Source: Verrucomicrobiia bacterium | GTDB lineage: Bacteria > Verrucomicrobiota > Verrucomicrobiia > Palsa-1439 | DNA length: 64,000 nt | Direction of reading: 5' to 3' | Assembly: GCA_035515475.1 (NCBI GenBank) | Contig: DATJBF010000070.1 | Coordinates: 3,228 to 67,227, forward strand | Part shown: piece after piece, positions 31,493 through 45,423 of the stretch | How the letters are laid out: the number at the start of each line of letters is the position of its first letter | Position numbering within the stretch: the stretch's first letter is position 1 | Notes under the pieces: generated by a model | Databases searched by the model: none | What the model was told of the DNA's origin: nothing | The model's input: the letters and a program-made list of their open reading frames with translations, nothing else | Program-made: the position numbers and the translations under genes

Positions 31493-31503
31493 TGCGAGCG
31501 CGA

Positions 31504-31533
31504 ACTATCGCACGAACGTTTTGTGCGAGTCAA
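31504..31533 (-). promoter_or_regulatory. sigma70 promoter of glyS
   Basis: TTGACT-N18-GATAGT with extended TG, 11 nt before ATG. Confidence 0.6.
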
Positions 31534-31751
31534 GTTGCCAGCGCGCCCGGCGAGGCGGTACCGGTCCCGATCTCGCCAGGCGAACATTTTTCTCGCGACC
31601 GAACGTGGATTGCGTGAGAAGCCGCAACCCCAGAGACCCGGTCGGGCCCTTTCGTACAGCCTCCCACTTTTTGAGCCACAACTCCAAGCGCAGTGCCGCT
31701 TGAGATGAGATTGCATCGGCGGACCTGCCAGCTCTGACGAATTTAGTCTAT

Positions 31752-31844
31752 GTAATCCCAGAACCCGTTGATGCCGCCGTAGATTTCGCTGGATTGGAAG
31801 ACGAACCCGCGGCGTTTGCACAGCGCGACAATTTTGTCCATCAA
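31752..31844 (-). repeat. Direct-repeat copy of the glyS 5' region (31373-31465), forming a truncated mini-ORF
   Basis: 93 bp, 91/93 identical; reads [32 protein letters not shown]-stop. Confidence 0.9.
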
Positions 31845-32016
31845 ACCGGCTCGTTTTGGCCCTGTCAGGGCAGGCAGACCATGGGGAAAACCCTTAGATC
31901 ATGTTGAGATGAGGCGGTTCGGTAGTGGCATCTTCGGTGCTCTAGCGGTTGTGCTGGGAGGTGCCCCCCATAAGGACAGATTGAGGAAGGAGAGGCGTTA
32001 TGCGGAGAGCGGCGTT

Positions 32017-34173
32017 ATGAAAAGACTGTTGGGGAGCATATGTTCTGGTGCCCTGCTCTTGGGCATGGTCACCGTGAACAGCCGTGCGGCGACCACCACC
32101 AATCTGTTGGAGATGGACTTGGAAGCGCTGGTGAACGTCGAGGTCCGAAGCCCCGCCGGATTGACCGAAATCGATTCCCGCCGGGTGCCGGTCGCGATGA
32201 CGGAACTCGACGCGCGGGATATACAGCAGTCGGGTGCCCGAGATTTGGATCACTTGTTGGAGATTTACGTTCCCAACACGCAGTTCCTCCTGCATCACAC
32301 CCCACAACCTGATTTCGGATTTCGGGGAATCATCAGCGACCGGGATGACAAATACCTTTACCAGGTGAATGGCGTCACGATGAACAACCGGCTGTTGCAG
32401 GGCGCGGGGGACGAGCGCGAGCTGCCGTTGCTGGGGGACATCCGCTCCGTGGACGTGGTGCGGGGCCCGGCGTCGGCCACGCACGGCGCGGGCGCACTGG
32501 CCGGAGTCATTGACGTGGAAACATACAACGGCCTGACGTTTCAGGGAGCTGACCTGAACCTCCGCCAAGGTGTGATCAATCAATACACTGCGGCCGAGGC
32601 GCGGTATGGCCACAAGTTCAGCGACACATCCGGGTTGTTTGCGTATGGCGGCGTCGCCGACGTGCAAGGCGCGGACAATACTTATTACATCGGACACTCC
32701 TATCCGGCCAAGAACGGTTTGCCCGCCAATGTCGTCGGGGAACCGGTTGACGGGCCGATCCCGGGTCTCAATGAGCCGGCGTTCGGCTCGCTCTGGGGCA
32801 AGGCTCACCTGAGTTACGTGAACGGGCCGTTTGAGATCTGGGGCCGATTCGTCCAAGACGGCGAGGTGGCGCCGCCGAGCCGCTCGATTTATTCGAGCAC
32901 GCGGCCGGCGGACAGATCTCTGGACGACTGGACGTTGGGGCGTGAGATCCGAAATCAGCAGTACACCGCCACCGCCAGCTTCAAGAAGGACCTCTCGCCG
33001 TCGTGGAACCTGGAAATGCTGGAAAGCTGCGACCTATGGGTGTTCAAGGATCAGCGGGCCTTCACCAGCCCGAAGCCGACGCGCGTGGCGCACGAGGACC
33101 AAGCGTTCAGCCGCGCCATTGCGGATTGGACTCCCAACAGCGCCCATTCGTTGGCCTTCGGCGTGGAATACTCCCACATGTGGTTCCACGATCCGCCATA
33201 TGCCGATGCCTTGGATATCTCGCCGGTGGTTTCCAATCGTAACTGGCAGACCGACACAATTTCTTTCCTGGCTGAGCACCAGTGGAAGATCACCAAGGAC
33301 TGGACGACCTTTTTGAGTTTTCGCACGGACAAACACACCTACTCCGGCTGGCTGCTCTCGCCACGAGGCACGGTGGTATTCACGCCGACGGATCGGGACA
33401 CGTTCAAGGCCATGGCCGGGCAGTCCGTCCGCCGCAGTGGGGATGAGGAGTTGTGGGCGGAGTGGGAACGGGAGCGCACGGTCCCGGACCCGGAAACGCT
33501 CCGTTCCTACGAGGGTTCGTACGAGCACCGATTCTGGGACCAGTGGAGCGTGGGGGCTAACGGGTTTTACGAAGACTATAGTGCCATTGGTTACAGCTCG
33601 ACTTTGTATCATTCGGTGTCCCTCGGTCGTTTTCGAATTGCTGGCGGCGAGTTTCTGATCAGCTACACCAATCGGGCCACGCGCCTCACGTTGTCCGAGG
33701 GAGTAGCGAAGCTGGTGAATTCCAAGGTGCCCACGAGTTTGCCGGCGGGCGGGCAGGGGATCACCGCCGAGCCATACGGCTATGGGCACGACCTGGCGGA
33801 GTGGGCGCCGTCGATCACCAAGCTGGCACTCCTGCATGATATCGGTAGGAGATGGACGGTCAGTTCCTCGCTGGTTTATTATTCAGGGTTCCCCGGGGCT
33901 CAGGACTACGCCAAGTACAACGGCTCGCGCTCGTCTCCGCTGTCCGGCTTGCCCTATAGCGATGCGGGAGACACGACGCCGTACGGCCCCAATCTGTACG
34001 TGAATGCAGGCCTGGAGTTTCGTCCGTCGCCGAACTGGACCATCCGTGTGGACGGATACAACCTTGCGGCGCTTGCGGACAAGTCGTTGTCCAAACGCAA
34101 CTATTACTTCCGACTATCGGAATACAGCGTGGAGCCGGCCTCAGCGACCGTGTCCGTGCGTTACCGATTCTAA
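32017..34173 (+). CDS. TonB-dependent outer-membrane receptor (plug + barrel)
   Basis: Signal peptide; plug motif 'VDVVRGPASATHGAGALAGVIDV'; C-terminal '...VRYRF'. Confidence 0.88.
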   Translation: MKRLLGSICSGALLLGMVTVNSRAATTTNLLEMDLEALVNVEVRSPAGLTEIDSRRVPVAMTELDARDIQQSGARDLDHLLEIYVPNTQFLLHHTPQPDFGFRGIISDRDDKYLYQVNGVTMNNRLLQGAGDERELPLLGDIRSVDVVRGPASATHGAGALAGVIDVETYNGLTFQGADLNLRQGVINQYTAAEARYGHKFSDTSGLFAYGGVADVQGADNTYYIGHSYPAKNGLPANVVGEPVDGPIPGLNEPAFGSLWGKAHLSYVNGPFEIWGRFVQDGEVAPPSRSIYSSTRPADRSLDDWTLGREIRNQQYTATASFKKDLSPSWNLEMLESCDLWVFKDQRAFTSPKPTRVAHEDQAFSRAIADWTPNSAHSLAFGVEYSHMWFHDPPYADALDISPVVSNRNWQTDTISFLAEHQWKITKDWTTFLSFRTDKHTYSGWLLSPRGTVVFTPTDRDTFKAMAGQSVRRSGDEELWAEWERERTVPDPETLRSYEGSYEHRFWDQWSVGANGFYEDYSAIGYSSTLYHSVSLGRFRIAGGEFLISYTNRATRLTLSEGVAKLVNSKVPTSLPAGGQGITAEPYGYGHDLAEWAPSITKLALLHDIGRRWTVSSSLVYYSGFPGAQDYAKYNGSRSSPLSGLPYSDAGDTTPYGPNLYVNAGLEFRPSPNWTIRVDGYNLAALADKSLSKRNYYFRLSEYSVEPASATVSVRYRF

Positions 34174-34805
34174 TGTTTACCAAACCACATATTCCAGATC
34201 GGGCAGGTACGGTGCGCGGCTTGGCGAGCGAAACCAGGATGGTTCGGCTTCTGGTTGTGGTATTGGCTACGCTGGGATTCCCGTGTGGGAAGATGATGGT
34301 GGCGGCTAATGCTCCGGATGTGTCCGAGGAACAGGTCAAGGCCGCTTTTCTCATCAACTTCCCGAAGTACGTGGATTGGCCGGCGAACGCTTTTGCCGAG
34401 ACCAACAGCCCGATCGTGGTGGCGGTGTTTGGCGAGACCAGTTTGGACGGAGACCTCCAGAGAATGATCAAGGGCAAAGTGATCATGGGGCATCCTCTCG
34501 TTTTCAAGCGGGTGACGACGGAAGAAGAGTGCGCCAGCGGTTGTCAGATTCTGTTCATTGACGCAGCCGCGGCCCGGCGGGTCCCGGACATCATCAACAA
34601 GCTTGATGGGGCGAGCACACTGACCGTTGGCGACAGTGAAGATTTCCTCGACAGTGGCGGCGTCATCAAACTCGCCAAACGCGACCGGAAGATCCGGCTC
34701 GAGGTGAACCTGACCGCGGCCCGCCGCGCCCATCTCAAGCTCAGTTCGAAACTGCTCGGCGTGGCCGATGTTGTGCTGGGCAAGCCGCAGAGTGGGGGAG
34801 GCTGA
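34173..34805 (+). CDS. yfiR: YfiR family periplasmic protein (DUF4154)
   Basis: 'EEQVKAAFL.NF.KYV.WP', 'CQILFI', 'LTVGD...F...GG.I', 'EVNL.AA....L.LSSKLL'; alternative start 34239. Confidence 0.92.
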   Translation: MFTKPHIPDRAGTVRGLASETRMVRLLVVVLATLGFPCGKMMVAANAPDVSEEQVKAAFLINFPKYVDWPANAFAETNSPIVVAVFGETSLDGDLQRMIKGKVIMGHPLVFKRVTTEEECASGCQILFIDAAAARRVPDIINKLDGASTLTVGDSEDFLDSGGVIKLAKRDRKIRLEVNLTAARRAHLKLSSKLLGVADVVLGKPQSGGG

Positions 34806-34806
34806 C

Positions 34807-36807
34807 GTGCGGCTCCTCCAAAATGCCTCCATTCGGCGCAAGCAGATGCTGGTCATCATGCTCACCTGTATCGTTGCGCTGCTGTTGGCCTGCACGGGGT
34901 TCGTCGTTTACGAAATCGTCTCGTATCGACAGGAATTGGTCTGGAGTCTTACGTCGCTGGGCCAGATGGTTGGCGATAACGCCAGTGGGGCCCTCGACTT
35001 CAATGATCCCAAGGCCGCGGAAGACATGATGTCGGCGTTCCGGATGCGGCCGAACATTGTGGCCGCGTGCATTTACGCAAAGGACGGGAGTCCATTCGCC
35101 AAGTATCTTCGGACCGACCTTCCGGCCGACTTCTCGTTTCCAAAGCTGGAGACGGACGGCTACAGGTTTACCGACGGCCGGTTGATGTTGTTCCACACCA
35201 TTCTGGAAAAGGGCGATAAGATTGGCTCGATTTACCTGGAGTCGGACCTCGGACGGTTGACGGCGCGGTTGAGAAGGTACGCAATTATCGTCATCGTCGT
35301 GTTGTGCGCGTCCGTGTTGGCCGCCTTTCTCCTGTCGTCCGGACTTCAGCGCTGGCTGTCGAAACCGATCCTGCATCTGGCCGAGATCGCCAAGGCGGTC
35401 GCGGTGGAGAAGAACTATGCCGTTCGTGCCGTCAAGCAGAGCGGGGACGAATTGGGCATACTCACCGACGGTTTCAACGAGATGCTGGCGCAAATTCAGC
35501 AGCGGGACGCCGCCCTCCAGGCCGCCAACGAAGGTTTGGAGAAACGCGTGGAGGCACGCACGCAGGAGTTGGAGAGTTCCCTGTCGCTGCTGCATGCCAC
35601 GGTTGAGTCCACAGCCGACGGCATTCTGGTGGTGGATCGCCGGGGCAAGGTCGTGACCTACAACAAGAAGTTCGCGACCATGTGGCACATTCCGGAGACC
35701 GTGCTCTCGTCCGATGACGACGAACGGTTGCTGGGGGCGGTGCTCGATCAACTGAGCGATCCGGACGGATTCCTTGACAAGGTGCGGCAGTTGTACGCCA
35801 CCCCTGACGCGGAGAGTTTTGACGTGATCACTTTCAAGGATGGCCGGATCTTCGAACGATACTCGCAGCCCCAGTATGTGCGGGATCAAATTGTCGGCCG
35901 TGTCTGGAATTTCCGGGACGTGAGCGAGCGCAAGCGTGCCGAAAGCAAACTGGAAACCCTCCACCGGCAACTGCTGGACACGTCCCGCCAGGCCGGTATG
36001 GCCGAGGTGGCGACGAACGTGCTGCACAACGTCGGCAACGTGCTCAACACCGTGAACGTCTCTATTTCCATCGCCTCGGACAAGGTCCGGAAATCCAGAA
36101 TCGCGAACCTGGCCAAGGCGGCCGGGCTGCTCGAGGAGCACCGGGGCGATTTGGCTGCGTTTCTCACGCACGATGCGAAAGGAACGCAGTTGCCTGATTA
36201 CCTGATCAAACTCGCGAGCCATTTGACCGAGGAACAAGGGGAAATTCTCAAGGAGCTGCAGTTACTCCAGAGCAACGTCGAGCACATCAAGGACATCGTG
36301 GCTATGCAGCAGAGTTACGCCAAGGTTTCGGGCATGGTGGAGTCCTTGCCGCCGGTGGAACTGGTCGAGGACGCACTGCGCATGAACGCCGCCGCGTTGG
36401 GGCGGCACGAGGTGCAGGTCGTCCGCGAGTATGGCGACGCCCCGCTCGTATCGGTGGAAAAACACAAGGTATTGCAAATCTTGGTGAACCTGATTCGCAA
36501 TGCCAAGTACGCGTTGGACGAGGGCGGTCGTTCCGACAAGCGGTTGACACTGCGGATCGCTCGCAATGGCGACGACTTCGTCCACGTTTCGGTGATCGAC
36601 AACGGCGTGGGGATCCCCGCGGAGAACGTGACGCGGATTTTTGAGCACGGCTTCACCACCCGCAAAGGCGGTCATGGATTTGGCCTGCATAGCGGGGCGT
36701 TGGCAGCCCAAGAGATGGGCGGGACGTTGAGTGTCAGCAGCGATGGCCCCGGCCACGGCGCCGTCTTCACCCTGGCATTGCCGATCAAACCGAAGGAGGG
36801 GAAATGA
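34807..36807 (+). CDS. Sensor histidine kinase: TM-periplasmic (YfiN/CHASE8-like)-TM-HAMP-PAS-HisKA-HATPase
   Basis: 'AL.FND..AA', HAMP 'DELG.L.DGFN.ML', H-box 'VLHNVGN', N/G boxes 'NLIRNA', 'GFTT..GGHGFGL'. Confidence 0.9.
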   Translation: MRLLQNASIRRKQMLVIMLTCIVALLLACTGFVVYEIVSYRQELVWSLTSLGQMVGDNASGALDFNDPKAAEDMMSAFRMRPNIVAACIYAKDGSPFAKYLRTDLPADFSFPKLETDGYRFTDGRLMLFHTILEKGDKIGSIYLESDLGRLTARLRRYAIIVIVVLCASVLAAFLLSSGLQRWLSKPILHLAEIAKAVAVEKNYAVRAVKQSGDELGILTDGFNEMLAQIQQRDAALQAANEGLEKRVEARTQELESSLSLLHATVESTADGILVVDRRGKVVTYNKKFATMWHIPETVLSSDDDERLLGAVLDQLSDPDGFLDKVRQLYATPDAESFDVITFKDGRIFERYSQPQYVRDQIVGRVWNFRDVSERKRAESKLETLHRQLLDTSRQAGMAEVATNVLHNVGNVLNTVNVSISIASDKVRKSRIANLAKAAGLLEEHRGDLAAFLTHDAKGTQLPDYLIKLASHLTEEQGEILKELQLLQSNVEHIKDIVAMQQSYAKVSGMVESLPPVELVEDALRMNAAALGRHEVQVVREYGDAPLVSVEKHKVLQILVNLIRNAKYALDEGGRSDKRLTLRIARNGDDFVHVSVIDNGVGIPAENVTRIFEHGFTTRKGGHGFGLHSGALAAQEMGGTLSVSSDGPGHGAVFTLALPIKPKEGK

Positions 36808-39092
36808 TGAAATCCCCCGCTTCTGAGAAGAATCATCGCATTTTGGTAATCGACGACAATCGGGCCATCCACGACGATTTCCGCAAAATACTCGGCGGCC
36901 CGACAACCGAGAGTCCGGACCTTGCCGAGGCGGAAACGGCGTTGTTTGGAGAACGGGCGCCAACGCTACAGCCGGCACGTTTTCAGATTGATTCTGCCTA
37001 TCAGGGACAAGAAGGACTGGCGGTGGTCCAGAAATCAGTCCAACTGAAGCAACCCTACGCGGTGGCGTTCGTGGACATCCGCATGCCGCCGGGCTGGGAT
37101 GGCGTAGAGACGACGCGGAAACTGTGGGAGGTCGACCCGGACCTTCAGGTGGTGATTTGCACGGCCCACTCCGATTATTCATGGGAAGACATCTGCAGAG
37201 AGATTGGCAACTCGGACCGGTTTCTCGTTCTCAAGAAGCCATTCGACACGGTCGAGGTGCTGCAGTTGGCGAATGCGTTGACGGAGAAATGGTGGCTGCA
37301 ACAAGAGGTGAAGCGGCAGGTAGATGAGCTGGAACTGAAGGTGGCGGAGCGCACGAAGGAATTGCGGGAAGCCAACGGCTTGCTCAAGAAGGAAGTGGTG
37401 GAGCGCACGGAGGCCGAGGACAGCTTACGCATCAAGACCGAGCAACTTCAGGCCATTACCGACGCCATGGTGGCATTCCTCCAGAGCGGCGACGAATGTC
37501 TGCCCAGCGAGATTCTCTTACGGAACGCCCTGCAGCAGACGGGCAGCGAATGCGGGTTTGTGGGGTTGGTCACCGATGGGCCGTCACTCCGCATCTTGGC
37601 CCAGGCGGGCTTGGGTTGGGAACCAACCAAGGACGGGAAACGGCTGGAGATCATCAATTTCAAGAATCTCTTCGGCGGCGTCATCACCAGCGGGCAGGCG
37701 GTCGTCTCCAACGAACCAGGCGCCGATTCCCCCTCCGCCGAGGGACTGCCAATTGGTACGACGTCCCTGCAGCGTTTTCTGGCGGTACCGGTCCTCAGTG
37801 GAACCCAGGTTGTCGGGATGATCAGCGTGGCCAATCGCCCCGATGCGTACGCCGGGCGCGAACAGAATAAAATCGGTGTTCTGGCGCGGGTAGCCGGTGT
37901 TTTGCTCGACAACTACCGGCGCAAGGAGCGGGAGGCGATTCTGGAGAAGCAGTTGCGGCAATCCCAGAAGGTCGAGGCCATTGGTCGACTCGCGGGTGGC
38001 GTGGCCCACGATTTCAACAACATTCTGACCGCCATTCTCGGCTACAGCGACTTGCTGCTGTTGCGAATGAAGGCCGACGATTCGCTCCACGGAAGCGTGG
38101 AGGAAATTCGCAACGCGGCCCAGCGCGCAGCGGCGTTGACCCGGCAACTGCTGGCGTTCAGTCGCAAACAGATTCTGGAGCCCAAGGTCGTCAACCTGAA
38201 CGATATTGTGCTCGACCTGAGCAAGATGTTGAGGCGCATGATCGGTGAAGACATCGAATTGATTACCCACGGGGCCTGGGACCTCGGGCGGACGAAAGTC
38301 GACCCGGGCCAGATCGAACAGGTCATCATTAACCTGGCCATCAATGCACGCGACGCCATGCCGCACGGTGGGAAGCTGACAATCGAGACTGCCAATGTGG
38401 CGTTGGACAGGGCAAGCACACTCCGTTTGGGCGACGTGGCCCCGGGCAAGTACGTCAGAGTTGCCGTCAGTGACACCGGCACGGGGATGACTCCCGAAGT
38501 TCAAGCCCGGCTCTTCGAGCCATTTTTCACGACCAAGGCAGAGGGGAAAGGCACAGGGTTGGGACTGGCAATGTGCTACGGCATCGTCAAACAAAGCGGC
38601 GGCCATATCACCGTTTATAGCGAGCCGGGCCACGGGACGGTCTTCAAAATCTATCTGCCCCGGATCGAGGAGGCGGCCGCCCCCGAAGCGAAGCAGGATC
38701 AATCGGGCGACCTGCCTCAGGGCAAGGAAACGATCCTTCTCGTCGAGGACGAAGCCGGCCTGCGCAAGCTGACGAAGTTGGTTCTCCAAGACCTCGGATA
38801 CACGATTCTGGAAGCGGCCAACGGTTGTGAAGCCCTCCGCATCGCCAAGGAACGGGACGGACGCGGGTTCGATCTCGTCTTTACCGACGTGGTAATGCCG
38901 CAGATGGGAGGCAAAGAACTGGCCGACCATATTCACTCCCTCCGGCCCGATGCCAAAGTGCTCTTCACTTCCGGGTACACGGAGGACGCGATTGTCGATC
39001 ATGGCGTTCTCAACGATGACGTGGCCTTTCTGCATAAGCCGTACACGCCCAACATACTCGCGTGCAAGCTGCGGGAGGTCTTGGATACTTGA
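36804..39092 (+). CDS. Hybrid kinase REC-GAF-HisKA-HATPase-REC
   Basis: 'ILVIDD', 'VDIRMP', H-box '[10 protein letters not shown]', '[14 protein letters not shown]', C-terminal REC. Confidence 0.92.
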
Positions 39093-39107
39093 CCGGGGTG
39101 GGAAGCC

Positions 39108-41357
39108 GTGAACAACTCGCTCACACAAAGTCTGCTGGAACAATCAGTCCTGCTGTTTCCGCCCGAGTGGATCAAGTCGGCGCTCGTGTTGGCCTTGATT
39201 ACCGTGTGGATGGTGATCGTGTTGTTCGCGTACTTGAACTACTCGATGCGGCGCCCACACCTGAGTATGTGGATCGTGTCCTGGATGCTGTATTCGGTGT
39301 ACTTGGCAGCGTCGATCGGGCTCGAGGACGCGCCCGGTACGCCGTTCCTCTTGATGGCCTCGCGCGGCTGTATCGGCATCAGTGCGATGTTCATGTTTTG
39401 GGGAAGCTTTCAGCTCACCGGCCACAAACGGGACCAGCGCGAACTGGCCTTGGGCACCATCATGGTCGTCGTGTGGAGTTACATCGCGGCGTACAAGGTG
39501 GGCGATGTGATGTGGATCACGTTTCCGGTGTTCCTGCTGCTCTCGCTCGCCGGGGTGTACACGGGCGTGTTGTATATGCGCCGCCGGCGCTCGCGGGGCG
39601 CCACAATCCTTGGGGTGGGGTTCTTGCTGTGGGGTGTCCATCTGATCGGGTTTCCGCTGGCCAGTGGATCGCAGGCTCTGATGTCCGGCGCGTATTTCAC
39701 GTCGGCCATCTTGTCGCTGCTGATCATCGTGGGAATGGTCCTGGAGGATGAAGTCAACATTTCCGAGCAGGATTATCGGGCACTGTTTGATTCATCGGGC
39801 GACGCGATCTTTCTGCTGGATTCCACCACGCTGGGGATTCGGGAAACCAATCTCGCGGCTCTGGTCTTTAGCGGGCTGGGCGCGACGGACCTGCGCAATC
39901 GGCGGTTCACAGATTTGTGCCCCGATCTGCTGCCTGCGCCAGCCGCGGCATGCGATCCGGAAATGATCCTCGCCCATATCAACGAGCCCGGCCGCGAGTT
40001 CCGCTTGCTGCGGCCCGATGGCGGTCTCCTCGTTTTCGAAGCGTGCGCGAGCCTGGTTCATTGCCCGCAGGGGCCGGTCCTGCAGGTCAATGTCCACGAC
40101 ATCACGCAGCGCAAGCGAACCGAGGAATCGCTCCGTGAGACTGCGCGCCAGCTCGAAAGCACGTTGACGGAACTGCGCGAGATGCAAAAGCAACTGATCC
40201 AGCAGGAGCGGCTGCGGGCGTTGGCGCAAATGGCCAGCGGCGTGGCGCACGATTTCAACAACGCCCTCGCCAAGATCCTTGGCTTCAACGAACTGTTACT
40301 TTCTTGGCCGGAGAACCTCGAGGACAAGGACAAGGTCAAGAAGTACCTGCAGATGACGAATACCGCAGCCCAAGAGGCGGTCAACATCGTCAATCGTCTG
40401 CGCGAGTTCTACCGTCATCGGAAGGAGACCGAAATTTACCAGCCGGTCAATCTCAACGAGGCTGTTCGGGAGGCCATCGAGTTGACGCAACCGAAGTGGA
40501 AGGATATCGGAATGGCCAGCGGCGCAACCATTCACATCCAAACGAGCCTGCAGGATGCAGTCAGCGTGTCCGGCAGTCCCGTGGATCTGCGTGAAACTGT
40601 CATGAACTTGATTCTGAACTCGGTTGACGCCATGCCGGACGGGGGCACGATTACCGTCACCACCCGGGCGGAGGACGAAACTGCGGTTTTGGAAGTGCGC
40701 GATACCGGCAAGGGCATGACCGAGGAAGTGCGCCAGAGATGTTTCGAGCCCCTGTTCACGACGAAGGGAGAACACGGCACGGGCTTGGGCTTGGCGATCG
40801 TCTACGGCATCTTGCAGCGCCATCACGGTTCGATTCAGATCGAGAGCGAGGTGGGCAAGGGCACCTGCGTCACCGTGCGCCTGCCGGCGTTGCGCGAAGC
40901 CGACACCCCAGTCTGCCCAACCCCAAATCTGTTCCGTGCGTTGCGCGTGCTGCTGGTTGAGGATGAATCGCAAGTGCGTGACATCGAGGCCGAGTATCTG
41001 CGCCGGGATGGACATTCGGTCGAAACGGCGGCCAACGGGCGAGAGGGCTTGGAGAAGTTCCGCCGCGGCCGGTTCGACTTGGTTGTCGCCGATCGCGCGA
41101 TGCCGGAAATGAACGGCGACAAAATGACCGAAGTCATCAAGCAATCTGCGCCAGCCACCCCGGTTATGATGGTAACTGGTTTTGCCGACCTGCCTTTGGA
41201 TCAGGCCGCTGGGAACCCGCGACCGGATCTGATTGTGCGAAAACCGATCACGCAGACGACTCTGCGCCAAGCCATTGCGCAAACGCTGGCCGCATCCGCT
41301 TCGCCACGGCCTGCGCCATCTCCAGAACAGGCCCGCGAGAAGTCAAGTGGAACATAA
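39108..41357 (+). CDS. Membrane-bound hybrid kinase (about 7 TM sensor)-PAS-HisKA-HATPase-REC
   Basis: Hydrophobic N-terminal ~210 aa, 'SGVAHDFNN', 'LFTTKG..GTGLGL', REC 'DRAMP'. Confidence 0.9.
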   Translation: MNNSLTQSLLEQSVLLFPPEWIKSALVLALITVWMVIVLFAYLNYSMRRPHLSMWIVSWMLYSVYLAASIGLEDAPGTPFLLMASRGCIGISAMFMFWGSFQLTGHKRDQRELALGTIMVVVWSYIAAYKVGDVMWITFPVFLLLSLAGVYTGVLYMRRRRSRGATILGVGFLLWGVHLIGFPLASGSQALMSGAYFTSAILSLLIIVGMVLEDEVNISEQDYRALFDSSGDAIFLLDSTTLGIRETNLAALVFSGLGATDLRNRRFTDLCPDLLPAPAAACDPEMILAHINEPGREFRLLRPDGGLLVFEACASLVHCPQGPVLQVNVHDITQRKRTEESLRETARQLESTLTELREMQKQLIQQERLRALAQMASGVAHDFNNALAKILGFNELLLSWPENLEDKDKVKKYLQMTNTAAQEAVNIVNRLREFYRHRKETEIYQPVNLNEAVREAIELTQPKWKDIGMASGATIHIQTSLQDAVSVSGSPVDLRETVMNLILNSVDAMPDGGTITVTTRAEDETAVLEVRDTGKGMTEEVRQRCFEPLFTTKGEHGTGLGLAIVYGILQRHHGSIQIESEVGKGTCVTVRLPALREADTPVCPTPNLFRALRVLLVEDESQVRDIEAEYLRRDGHSVETAANGREGLEKFRRGRFDLVVADRAMPEMNGDKMTEVIKQSAPATPVMMVTGFADLPLDQAAGNPRPDLIVRKPITQTTLRQAIAQTLAASASPRPAPSPEQAREKSSGT

Positions 41358-41395
41358 CCTGCTAAAATGGGCCGCGGAAGGGTGAAAGCAAGGTT

Positions 41396-41812
41396 ATGAT
41401 TAAGACCAAAGTTCTTATTGTCGATGATGATGTGGCCGCGAGCCGCTTACTCGCGCTGGGCTTGGAGAAAACCGGGGCCTTCGAGGTGATCGTGGAAAAC
41501 GTTGCCACGCGGGCGCTCGGCTCCGCGCGGCAATTCGGCCCCGATGTGATTTTCTTGGACGTGTGCATGCCGGGGGCTGACGGCGGCGATGTCGCCTTCC
41601 AAATTCACAGCGACCCTCGCCTAAGGGCAACGCCCATCATCTTCCTCACATCGCTCGTCTCGGGACGTGAAACGAACGCCCAGGCAGAGCGAGGTGGATA
41701 CGAGTTTCTCCCCAAACCTGCCAGCTTGGCAAAGGTTATTGCCTGCATCGACCGTCATCTGACGCGGCGAGCAGAGGCGTCCGGTGCCGTCCCGGCGGGC
41801 AAGCCTCACTGA
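41396..41812 (+). CDS. Single-domain response regulator
   Basis: 'VLIVDDD', 'FLDVCMP', 'TS', 'KP'. Confidence 0.9.
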   Translation: MIKTKVLIVDDDVAASRLLALGLEKTGAFEVIVENVATRALGSARQFGPDVIFLDVCMPGADGGDVAFQIHSDPRLRATPIIFLTSLVSGRETNAQAERGGYEFLPKPASLAKVIACIDRHLTRRAEASGAVPAGKPH

Positions 41813-42028
41813 TCCCCATCGCCGGTGCGGCGCGACATCGCGCCTCAGAAACCTTGGCACCATGGTGCCACATCGTCCACCGTTCTGGGACTGATCGCGT
41901 TCACGATTGTACGCGGGGGATGCCCCGGTTTCCAAGCGGGACAAAGTCCTCGGGCGATGCAGGCTTGCGGGCGGCCACTCACGCGAGTCTTTCGCAATTT
42001 CCGATGAGTGCCCCCGAGATCGGTACCG

Positions 42029-42044
42029 TGGCACTGACGCTGCT
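42029..42044 (+). promoter_or_regulatory. Putative sigma54 (-24/-12) promoter
   Basis: TGGCAC-TGACG-CTGCT with correct GG-N10-GC spacing, ~100 nt before ATG 42146. Confidence 0.45.
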
Positions 42045-42145
42045 TTTGATAGCCGTCATGGACTGGCGCCCGCGCTGTCGTGACGAGCGACTTGACCATC
42101 GACAAGACGGGGCCTCGGTGAACGGATGAAACGACAGGCTTGAAA

Positions 42146-44808
<2,663 letters not shown>

Positions 44809-44821
<13 letters not shown>

Positions 44822-45423
44822 TTGCCGAAGATGATGCCGTGTCGCGACGGGTGTTGGAGGCCACGCTGGCCAAGTGGGGTTACGAGGTGGTTGTGACCAC
44901 CGATGGCCAGCAGGCGCTCGAGCAGTTAATGCACCCCGATGCCCCGTCGTTGGCCGTGCTGGACTGGATGATGCCGGGTTTGGATGGCTCGGAGGTGTGT
45001 CGTCAAGCCCGTCAAGCACGGGGCGACCGCTTGTTGTACCTGATTTTGCTCACGGCCAAAGGCCGCAAAGAAGACGTTGTCGAAGGATTGACCGCGGGGG
45101 CGGACGACTATGTCGTCAAACCGTTTGATCGGGCCGAATTGAAGGCCCGCCTCAACGTCGGCGAGCGCATCCTGCGGTTGCAGGCGGAACTGGCCACGCG
45201 CGTGAAGGAACTCGAACTCGCGCTCTCCAAAGTCAAATTGCTGCAGGGTCTGCTGCCGATTTGTTGTTACTGCAAGAAAATCCGTGACGACCAGAACTAC
45301 TGGCGGCAGGTCGAAGCGTACGTCTCCTCCCATTCGGAAGCGCAGTTCACCCACGCGATTTGCCCGGAGTGCCGGGCGAACATCGTCGAGCCCGAGTTGG
45401 ATCGTCTCAAGTCCGAACGGTGA
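44809..45423 (+). CDS. Response regulator with Cys/His-rich C-terminal domain
   Basis: REC 'DWMMP'; tail '[19 protein letters not shown]...HS...FTHAICPEC'. Confidence 0.9.

Follow-up and report, generated by a model that had tools for sequence, protein, structure and literature searches.

A TonB-dependent receptor, a YfiR-like protein and CHASE8 histidine kinases of Verrucomicrobiota as a possible trans-envelope relay

The window considered here, i.e., the whole analysed stretch of 64,000 nucleotides, belongs to a Verrucomicrobiia bacterium of the GTDB group Palsa-1439 (NCBI GenBank assembly GCA_035515475.1, contig DATJBF010000070.1, positions 3,228 to 67,227 of the forward strand), and on its + strand, at 32017-36807, three adjacent genes encode a TonB-dependent receptor (TBDR), a periplasmic YfiR-like protein of the DUF4154 family and a sensor histidine kinase (K1) with a periplasmic CHASE8 domain. 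In the best-supported reading of this trio, a signal enters at the receptor, is handed on by the YfiR-like protein, which acts as an adaptor, and is transduced by the CHASE8 kinases of the genome. In our opinion, with a probability of roughly 0.4, these proteins constitute a relay across the envelope: the soluble YfiR-like protein would move between the receptor of the outer membrane and the kinases of the inner membrane and would be captured directly by a motif at the N-terminus of the receptor. The input at the outer membrane is indirectly supported by the conserved adjacency of the genes, the occurrence of receptor and adaptor pairs without a kinase gene directly downstream, a motif of the associated receptors, natural fusions of the adaptor with stalked kinases and the finding of no other TBDR in this genome.

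To our knowledge, only two routes from a TBDR to the cytoplasm are established: either a FecA-type domain acts on an anti-sigma factor, or the ligand is imported and then sensed in the periplasm. Should the receptor be read by the adaptor directly, the trio would provide a third route of TBDR signalling, which ends in phosphorylation, and YfiR with its sensor would be a core that has acquired either YfiB or a TBDR at the outer membrane, depending on the lineage. If such a contact relay is true, it would make the class important; relatives are present in the cultured bacteria Geotalea uraniireducens Rf4 and Opitutus terrae.

The three genes and their products

The reading of open reading frames (ORFs), together with Pfam and NCBIfam searches, placed the members of the trio as follows:

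32017..34173, + strand: TBDR of 718 amino acid residues, 'lineage A' (Pfam Plug and barrel, AlphaFold2 (AF2) model)
32113..32145, + strand: N-terminal motif MDLEALVNVEV, residues 33-43 of the receptor (alignment)
34173..34805, + strand: periplasmic YfiR-like (DUF4154) protein with a signal peptide (PF13689, NF053591, AF2/Foldseek)
34807..36807, + strand: sensor kinase K1, composed of a transmembrane (TM) segment, CHASE8, a second TM segment, HAMP, PAS, a FixL-like dimerization and histidine phosphotransfer (DHp) domain and HATPase

The receptor and YfiR-like genes meet in TAATG (34171-34175), the YfiR-like and K1 genes in TGA-c-GTG (34803-34809), with the Shine-Dalgarno sequence GGGGGAGG located 6 nt upstream, and the stop codon of K1 overlaps the start of the following hybrid kinase gene in ATGA (36804-36807). 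An earlier note on this DNA, made from the sequence alone, had claimed a translationally coupled trio of these genes, which was confirmed at the stated coordinates, except for the start of the kinase; instead of the proposed ATG 34768, the most likely start is GTG 34807, because of the Shine-Dalgarno sequence and the homologues. The same note took 32017-36807 as the unit, whereas the trio is the head of an eight-gene kinase cluster and the operon extends, with more kinase and receiver genes, to 45423. The signal peptide of the YfiR-like protein has a long n-region, and an alternative start at 34239 was given by the gene caller.

The receptor consists of a signal peptide, a short N-terminal segment, a plug (Pfam Plug, 1.5e-12) and a barrel (1.1e-16). 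Its AF2 model, based on 41 homologues (pLDDT 85.4, pTM 0.87), is an ordinary plug-in-barrel without an extra domain, closest to BtuB and Cir (target TM-score (TMt) about 0.83), and residues 1-43, which precede the plug, are predicted to be disordered (pLDDT <50). The best NCBIfam match of the receptor was NF053590 at 66.6 bits, below the cut-off of 645 and covering positions 2-185 of the 604 in the model, i.e., the N-terminal motif and the plug only; the cut-off was missed because the window receptor belongs to a different lineage. A FecA-type STN signalling domain was found on the receptor neither by Pfam, which gave only Plug and barrel, nor in the AF2 model, and therefore a route starting from it would differ from FecIRA, in agreement with the earlier note. 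Genes of a FecR anti-sigma factor or a FecI sigma factor of the extracytoplasmic function (ECF) type are not adjacent, the neighbours being a synthetase gene and recJ upstream and kinase and receiver genes downstream. According to a profile search of the whole genome, a 3.8-Mb metagenome-assembled genome (MAG) with 93.6% completeness, this is the only Plug-domain protein, and the role of the receptor is unambiguous here because the genome has a single TBDR.

By sequence and predicted fold, the middle protein is a homologue of YfiR, as had been proposed in the earlier note. It matched PF13689 (7e-42) and passed the cut-off of 125 bits for NF053591, 'TOL_0243 family YfiR-like periplasmic protein' (156.1 bits, E 6.2e-46); in the whole-genome search with NF053591 (156.7 bits), its gene was found in a single copy. 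The YfiR equivalog NF053586 was not reached (30.1 bits vs the cut-off of 85). The AF2 model (pLDDT 86.8) comprises one alpha/beta domain of about 150 residues, its best matches in the Protein Data Bank (PDB) are the YfiR structures 4yn7, 4zhu and 5eb1 (Foldseek; TMt 0.76-0.78, 18-21% identity; TMt 0.76 and a root-mean-square deviation of 2.7 A for 4yn7), and a search of PDB chains with the family profile gave YfiR only (E 1.5e-3). The next-best folds are a single-domain substrate-binding protein of Rhodothermus marinus (5z6v) and one lobe of the PF04392-type binding proteins; the model was aligned with a single lobe of 3lft and 3lkv (TMt 0.35), and their two-lobe clamp was not found in it. Work attributed to Xu and colleagues in 2016 is said to have found that YfiR binds small molecules (vitamin B6, L-Trp).

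The protein of R. marinus (5z6v, 6k1x, 8wgl) has the same single alpha/beta fold (Foldseek TMt 0.58-0.60), and its gene is located near a chemoreceptor gene; its authors drew no connection with YfiR (PMC10805632), and no match to it appeared in the sequence-profile search against PDB chains. It was shown for YfiR itself that the protein is similar to a single lobe of type I periplasmic binding proteins and binds YfiB through a conserved C-terminal surface, with beta7 in one sheet with YfiB, and the same surface was proposed for YfiN (Li et al. 2015, PMC4655355). The corresponding YfiR segment I160-T-F162-E163-A-N165-L166 is represented in the family by the block 'IRLEVNL', the best-conserved segment, with invariant N and L; at other positions of YfiR, F151 is replaced by Ile and I169 by Ala.

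In K1, CHASE8 (residues 55-157), HAMP (194-245), PAS (275-392) and HATPase (567-674) were recognized by Pfam, CHASE8 with 49.5 bits vs a cut-off of 27. NF053592 ('sensor histidine kinase, YfiR-like protein-associated') gave 238.7 bits and passed its cut-off of 194, and positions 7-239 of NF007423, the DgcN/YfiN model of Escherichia coli and Pseudomonas aeruginosa, matched K1 residues 21-261 (E 3.9e-22). Judging from these alignments, the sensor of K1 is homologous to YfiN across TM1, CHASE8, TM2 and HAMP, and the YfiN-like N-terminus suggested in the earlier note was thus borne out by the CHASE8 profile. Particularly, the YfiN motif AAVVF aligns with A-L-D-F78 of K1 and with A-L-Q-F of a kinase encoded on contig C17 of the same genome; the motif A-A-x-x-F was proposed as the YfiR-binding site, and the binding residues were argued to be conserved in YfiR-YfiN systems (Malone et al., PMC3375315). 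The output part of K1 consists of PAS, a FixL-like DHp and HATPase. The suggestion that HisKA and HATPase replace GGDEF is right in that the output is a histidine kinase with HATPase and GGDEF had no match in K1, and wrong in that Pfam HisKA is absent from it. The phospho-acceptor region is FixL-like, with His420 (numbering from ATG 34768) aligned to the FixL H-box, and the ATP-binding boxes are legible in the translation. About 145 residues (~420-565; 36025-36470) lie between the H-box and the ATP-binding domain. This spacing is longer by roughly 80 residues than that of a usual DHp, and Pfam HisKA may have been missed because of it.

Taken together with a kinase, the YfiR-YfiN core is not new. 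In silico, it was described in 2012 as widespread and modular, histidine kinase, Hpt, MCP or GGDEF-EAL outputs often standing in place of GGDEF and YfiB being usually absent (Malone et al. 2012, PMC3375315); Opitutus, a member of Verrucomicrobiota, is listed there with a kinase output (Table S4). The rewiring to phosphotransfer presented in the earlier note as a feature of this locus is real as regards the kinase output, but it has been known since that paper. TonB is never mentioned in the paper, and such YfiR-YfiN systems are treated in it as lacking an outer-membrane input. The neighbourhood has been noticed by the NCBIfam curators, since three linked models exist: NF053590 (TOL_0244 family TBDR), NF053591 (TOL_0243 family) and NF053592 (sensor kinase domain). 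By these profiles, the locus of the window is the catalogued trio, having the same order and strand of three genes, whereas its receptor is outside the curated TOL_0244 family, in a separate lineage common to Geotalea.

Among characterized systems, YfiBNR of P. aeruginosa and E. coli (TpbB/DgcN-YfiR-YfiB) and HmsCDE of Yersinia likewise have a YfiR-fold protein beside a TM-CHASE8-TM-HAMP sensor. Conservation extends to the AAxxF motif in the sensor and to the YfiR surface at the C-terminus, and an outer-membrane protein is encoded in the same operon. However, this protein is a 22-strand TBDR in the window and the OmpA/Pal-like lipoprotein YfiB in YfiBNR, the signal leaves through a histidine kinase, which feeds a cluster of several kinases, rather than through a GGDEF cyclase, and the gene order is receptor-adaptor-sensor rather than yfiR-yfiN-yfiB. 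A gene of an OmpA/Pal-like YfiB was not found within 31493-45423, the rest of the genome not having been searched for YfiB. Its place in the operon is taken by the TBDR, which, as inferred in the earlier note, may stand in for YfiB as the partner sequestering the YfiR-like protein, a view with indirect support only.

Conservation, receptor motif and natural fusions

A search with NF053591 across 401 Verrucomicrobiota genomes gave matches in 52 of them (13% of the sample), with up to 7 copies per genome, and in public data the YfiR-like family amounts to 12,271 clusters (50% identity) at E <= 1e-10. The arrangement of genes was counted in 29 loci of the phylum, one per genome, with a flank of 1.5 kb each. 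A same-strand TBDR gene is directly upstream of the YfiR-like gene in 23 of the 29 loci, and in 1 further locus the TBDR gene is adjacent but divergent; a CHASE8 protein is encoded directly downstream in 25/29. The canonical full trio is present in 19/29 loci and, as the earlier note had supposed, this neighbourhood recurs in genomes. A TBDR and YfiR-like pair without a CHASE8 gene directly downstream was found in 4/29, and a YfiR-like gene with a kinase gene and no TBDR within 1.5 kb upstream in another 4/29. The YfiR-like gene is, therefore, the hub of the arrangement, and each of the pairs can occur without the third gene in the immediate neighbourhood.

The order receptor-adaptor-kinase was also found in all 14 genome loci taken from the adaptor alignment, of which L017, L018 and L021 are at contig ends or frameshifted; this set was obtained with narrow patterns and covers Verrucomicrobiota, while other phyla were reached via receptor homologues. 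Three relatives with wholly different flanks retain the receptor, DUF4154 and CHASE8 kinase genes. Because the trio is kept amid unrelated flanks in every related locus examined, its arrangement is not due to chance. Beyond the phylum, the trio occurs in Geotalea uraniireducens Rf4, where a lineage-A receptor is followed by DUF4154 and CHASE8 proteins, and on a contig resembling Desulfuromonadota.

Some of these loci have peculiarities. In Geotalea (L022:12856-17181, CP000698.1), the third protein is CHASE8-HAMP-PAS with a coiled-coil end and without a kinase domain, and its gene is followed by a 43-codon ORF and then by the gene of a PAS/GAF protein, which corresponds to either a split sensor or a frameshifted gene. 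All three genes of the trio in L018 and L021 are split over two or three frames, being pseudogenes or results of sequencing or assembly errors.

The associated receptors form at least three deeply diverged lineages. The window receptor (lineage A) is 55% identical to its counterpart in L010, and it aligns with the main lineage B and with the receptor of L016 in the plug alone, at about 25% identity; across the same loci, identity is about 50% for the kinases and 45-59% for the YfiR-like proteins. There are 162 homologues of lineage A, including those of Tepidisphaeraceae, Elusimicrobia and Geotalea uraniireducens Rf4 (49% identity). A tree of the adaptors placed the window in a well-supported clade of 17 rows, with 14 receptors of lineage B, 2 of lineage A and 1 of another type, and the label A needs >=2 changes on this tree. 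As far as the tree goes, the lineage of the receptor is decoupled from that of the adaptor, by either exchange or differential loss from an ancestor with two receptors. In L024:10001-14331 (GCA_936419385.1, CAKYZQ010000075.1), a lineage-A paralogue, 68% identical to the receptor of the window, is followed by a lineage-B receptor; the stop and start codons of these tandem genes overlap, and the contig ends inside the second one. The tandem of A and B receptors in this locus may represent the ancestral layout. The idea that unrelated TBDRs were swapped into the slot was rejected in view of the shared N-terminal motif, the best match to NF053590 and the A/B tandem in L024. A deeply diverged, yet dedicated receptor superclade, with differential loss or exchange, fits better.

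All adaptor-linked receptor lineages carry, directly before the plug, the motif [LM]-x-[LIVM]-E-[EQA]-L-x(2-3)-[LIVMA]-x-[LIVM]. In the window receptor, it is represented by MDLEALVNVEV, situated in the disordered segment at the expected place of the TonB box; in lineage A, E36 is nearly invariant and L38 invariant. The motif was present in 20/20 adaptor-associated receptors, which showed the classical TonB-box pattern in 0/20, whereas among 20 non-associated TBDRs, taken from three Verrucomicrobiota genomes, the motif occurred in 0/20 and the classical pattern in 13/20.

Natural fusions of DUF4154 with kinases occur in a further family of Verrucomicrobiota as well as beyond the phylum, e.g., in Melioribacteraceae. 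They include the proteins P0248-P0250 and those encoded at these loci:

L056:5998-9231
L057:1-1881, - strand
L055:5184-8927

In such a fusion, a signal peptide and DUF4154 are followed by a stalk of 133-216 residues without proline, then by a single TM segment and HisKA-HATPase(-REC), REC being a receiver domain. The stalk is rich in Ala, Glu, Lys, Leu and Gln, and the junction after DUF4154 has the conserved sequence LLGGTE[VI]DVA..LYREGQ.SL. If it is one continuous helix, the stalk would span 20-32 nm, which is about the width of the periplasm. It suggests that the YfiR-like head acts close to the outer membrane, and the natural fusion as such shows adaptor and kinase to be parts of a single pathway. 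A TBDR gene is directly upstream in 2/4 clearly resolved fusion loci, L056 (lineage A) and L059. The homologue search with the fused kinase gave 5 matches, a number which is not a frequency, since the low-complexity stalk probably dominated the search.

The proposed relay and its alternatives

The following sequence of events may be proposed; we infer in it every contact and every phosphotransfer partner, as well as the ligand and the sign of regulation. At rest, the C-terminal surface of the YfiR-like protein (beta7 'IRLEVNL' and the last helices) would bind the periplasmic CHASE8 domain of K1, probably also that of the C17 kinase and, less surely, that of K2, the second CHASE8 kinase of the cluster, and would keep these kinases in one signalling state, as YfiR does with YfiN. 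The binding of a ligand to the TBDR would free the disordered N-terminal segment with the motif from the plug into the periplasm, where it would capture the YfiR-like protein in the same manner as the unwound N-terminus of YfiB captures YfiR; the candidate peptide for this binding is TTNLLEMDLEALVNVEVRSPAG. The state of the kinases would then switch, with autophosphorylation of K1 on His420, and the hybrid kinase translationally coupled to K1 would take over the phosphate at its N-terminal receiver and pass it on into the multi-kinase network, with an output outside the cluster. That this receiver is the likely first acceptor of the K1 phosphate is deduced from translational coupling alone. 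Direct capture is favoured as the only reading that explains why the motif is specific and why pairs without a kinase and stalked fusions exist, and as a parallel to the action of YfiB. As in FecA-FecR-FecI, the TBDR would report its occupancy by a ligand to an inner-membrane transducer via its periplasmic N-terminus; in contrast to that system, STN, anti-sigma and ECF sigma components are absent from the window, the adaptor is soluble (stalk-tethered in the fusions) and the output is phosphorylation.

In a broader and more doubtful form of this proposal, the trios would represent a third general TonB-dependent trans-envelope route, in which a receptor superclade devoid of a signalling domain exposes, once its ligand is bound, a peptide replacing the classical TonB box. 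This peptide would capture, directly beneath the outer membrane, an adaptor of the YfiR fold, either soluble, as in the window, or carried by the kinase on a coiled-coil stalk across the periplasm, and the only TBDR of the genome would be mainly a sensor.

A number of points weigh against capture of the adaptor by the receptor. The receptor, being a complete ordinary transporter with intact plug and barrel, probably also imports something, as judged from its model. The motif pattern was derived from the associated set itself, with one pattern per motif, and the control genomes were few; the associated receptors may be a single ancient clade in which the TonB box took a form of its own, and the motif would then be due to common descent. 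The adaptor phylogeny, which by the tree does not track the receptor lineage, is neutral at best for a specific interface. Matching NF053591 at E 1e-12 to 1e-21, the stalked fusions constitute a distant subfamily, and in two of the four resolved loci, L057 and L058, they have no adjacent TBDR. Of the disulfides C71-C110 and C145-C152 of YfiR, only the equivalent of C110 is kept, the positions of C71, C145 and C152 being occupied by other residues, so that, by alignment, the disulfides behind the redox sensitivity of YfiR are absent from the YfiR-like protein. Finally, no experimental study of the TBDR/YfiR-like/kinase trio was found in the literature, nor was a published mechanism, which is consistent with the earlier note in describing the ligand and mechanism as uncharacterised.

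Import followed by sensing fits most of the data behind the direct link between the receptor and the YfiR-like protein and is a serious, if somewhat less likely, alternative. The TBDR would be a TonB-powered importer, whose substrate binds the YfiR-like protein and alters its hold on the CHASE8 kinases, similarly to LuxP/LuxQ, TorT/TorS and SusC with hybrid sensors, and a contact between the receptor and the adaptor would be unnecessary. In those systems, too, a periplasmic alpha/beta partner modulates a membrane kinase or a TBDR supplies the cue. The receptor model, which is that of a complete BtuB/Cir-like transporter, is consistent with this explanation, as are the three ExbD homologues, with which energy transduction is available, and the nearest folds of the adaptor beyond YfiR, the substrate-binding proteins 5z6v and L-Trp-bound 3lft; the adaptor has half of the periplasmic-binding-protein fold, and the identity of 49% within lineage A between Verrucomicrobiota and Geotalea suggests a conserved ligand. 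However, the special N-terminal motif of the associated receptors, their missing TonB-box pattern and the stalk of the fused forms are left unexplained by import. The YfiR-like clades do not follow the receptor lineage, though a ligand-binding adaptor might be expected to do so, and the adaptor is a single alpha/beta lobe without an inter-lobe cleft, unlike the two-lobed clamp of LuxP or TorT, the receptor in the window having in addition its dedicated motif.

The decoupling of the receptor lineage from the YfiR-like tree, as well as the 4/29 loci with a YfiR-like gene and a kinase gene alone, would also agree with the view that the YfiR-like protein and the CHASE8 kinase are a self-contained sensor of envelope or redox stress, the TBDR being merely co-transcribed or a regulated target; in fact, many YfiNR pairs have no outer-membrane partner (Malone et al., PMC3375315). 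This view seems quite improbable: the TBDR gene is the first one and is translationally coupled to the YfiR-like gene, four loci keep these two without a CHASE8 gene directly downstream, the motif is specific to the associated receptors, and the redox-sensing disulfides are not kept. Moreover, a DNA-binding regulator under which the receptor gene might be a local target was not found in Pfam and NCBIfam scans of the cluster proteins. The position of the motif, the pairs without a kinase and the tight control plausible for the only TBDR of a genome could, on the other hand, be reconciled with information flowing outwards, the YfiR-like protein binding the TonB-box region of the receptor and blocking or permitting its coupling with TonB, so that the state of the kinase sensor controls uptake. 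Such a mechanism is without precedent, CHASE8 has no known means, except binding, to alter a soluble partner, and the large kinase cascade downstream suggests an inward flow; we consider it very unlikely.

Downstream genes, own genome and other observations

The cluster continues on the + strand beyond K1 with the following genes:

36804..39092, + strand: hybrid kinase REC-GAF-HisKA-HATPase-REC (Pfam)
39108..41357, + strand: membrane-bound hybrid kinase TM-PAS-HisKA-HATPase-REC (Pfam)
41396..41812, + strand: stand-alone REC protein of 138 amino acid residues
42140..44821, + strand: K2, second CHASE8 kinase, CHASE8-HAMP-HisKA-HATPase-REC-REC-Hpt (Pfam, NF053592)
44809..45423, + strand: REC protein with a Cys-rich C-terminal tail (ending in HAICPEC), the final gene of the cluster

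The flanks of the cluster are housekeeping genes, with secDF, recJ and a class II aminoacyl-tRNA synthetase gene on one side and pfkB on the other. Scans for promoters and terminators were uninformative, the number of terminator-like sites being equal to the shuffled expectation.

In K2, CHASE8 was recognized with 3.9e-10 (Pfam), and NF053592 gave 189.4 bits, just under the cut-off of 194; by these matches, its sensor is a paralogue of that of K1. Its AxxF motif is degenerate, with Leu at that position and a shifted context. The third CHASE8 kinase of the genome, the one on C17 (C17:22450-24432), has the architecture CHASE8-HAMP-PAS-HisKA-HATPase and a well-conserved AALQF motif and is encoded far from the YfiR-like gene, next to a LuxR-type response regulator pair and another hybrid kinase. 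One adaptor thus faces three CHASE8 kinases in this genome, two in the cluster and one on C17, and the single YfiR-like gene together with the remote kinase implies that one adaptor may serve several kinases.

The sole TonB_C match in the genome is located beside TolB in the Tol cluster. The loci concerned are C49:25189-26907, C56:6250-6624 and C5:33685-34038, the receptor being on C70, the contig of the window. Although TonB_C sits in the Tol cluster, the independence of the receptor from TonB is not claimed, because three ExbD homologues exist. The generalization that Verrucomicrobiota have one TBDR was rejected, as relatives carry 1-79 Plug proteins, and so was the idea that the number of TBDRs tracks that of YfiR-like proteins, the two being close in only some genomes (8 TBDRs and 6 YfiR-like proteins in G351, 12 and 7 in G337).

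Five homologues of the adaptor (P0253, P0256, P0260, P0271 and P0297), 340-380 residues in length, contain two tandem DUF4154 domains, which might rebuild a two-lobed binding protein. The receptor gene is preceded by a region of 524 nt, in which a strong Shine-Dalgarno sequence, GGAAGGAGAGG (31986-31996), lies 4 nt 5' of ATG 32000. This ATG starts a six-codon ORF, MRRAAL, whose TGA overlaps the receptor ATG 32017 (ATGA), and which, to judge from its position, might represent either a leader peptide whose translation is coupled to that of the receptor or a product of chance. The Cys-rich tail of the receiver protein at 44809-45423 has no Pfam match and looks like a small zinc-binding output module, presumably similar to that carried by other signalling proteins.

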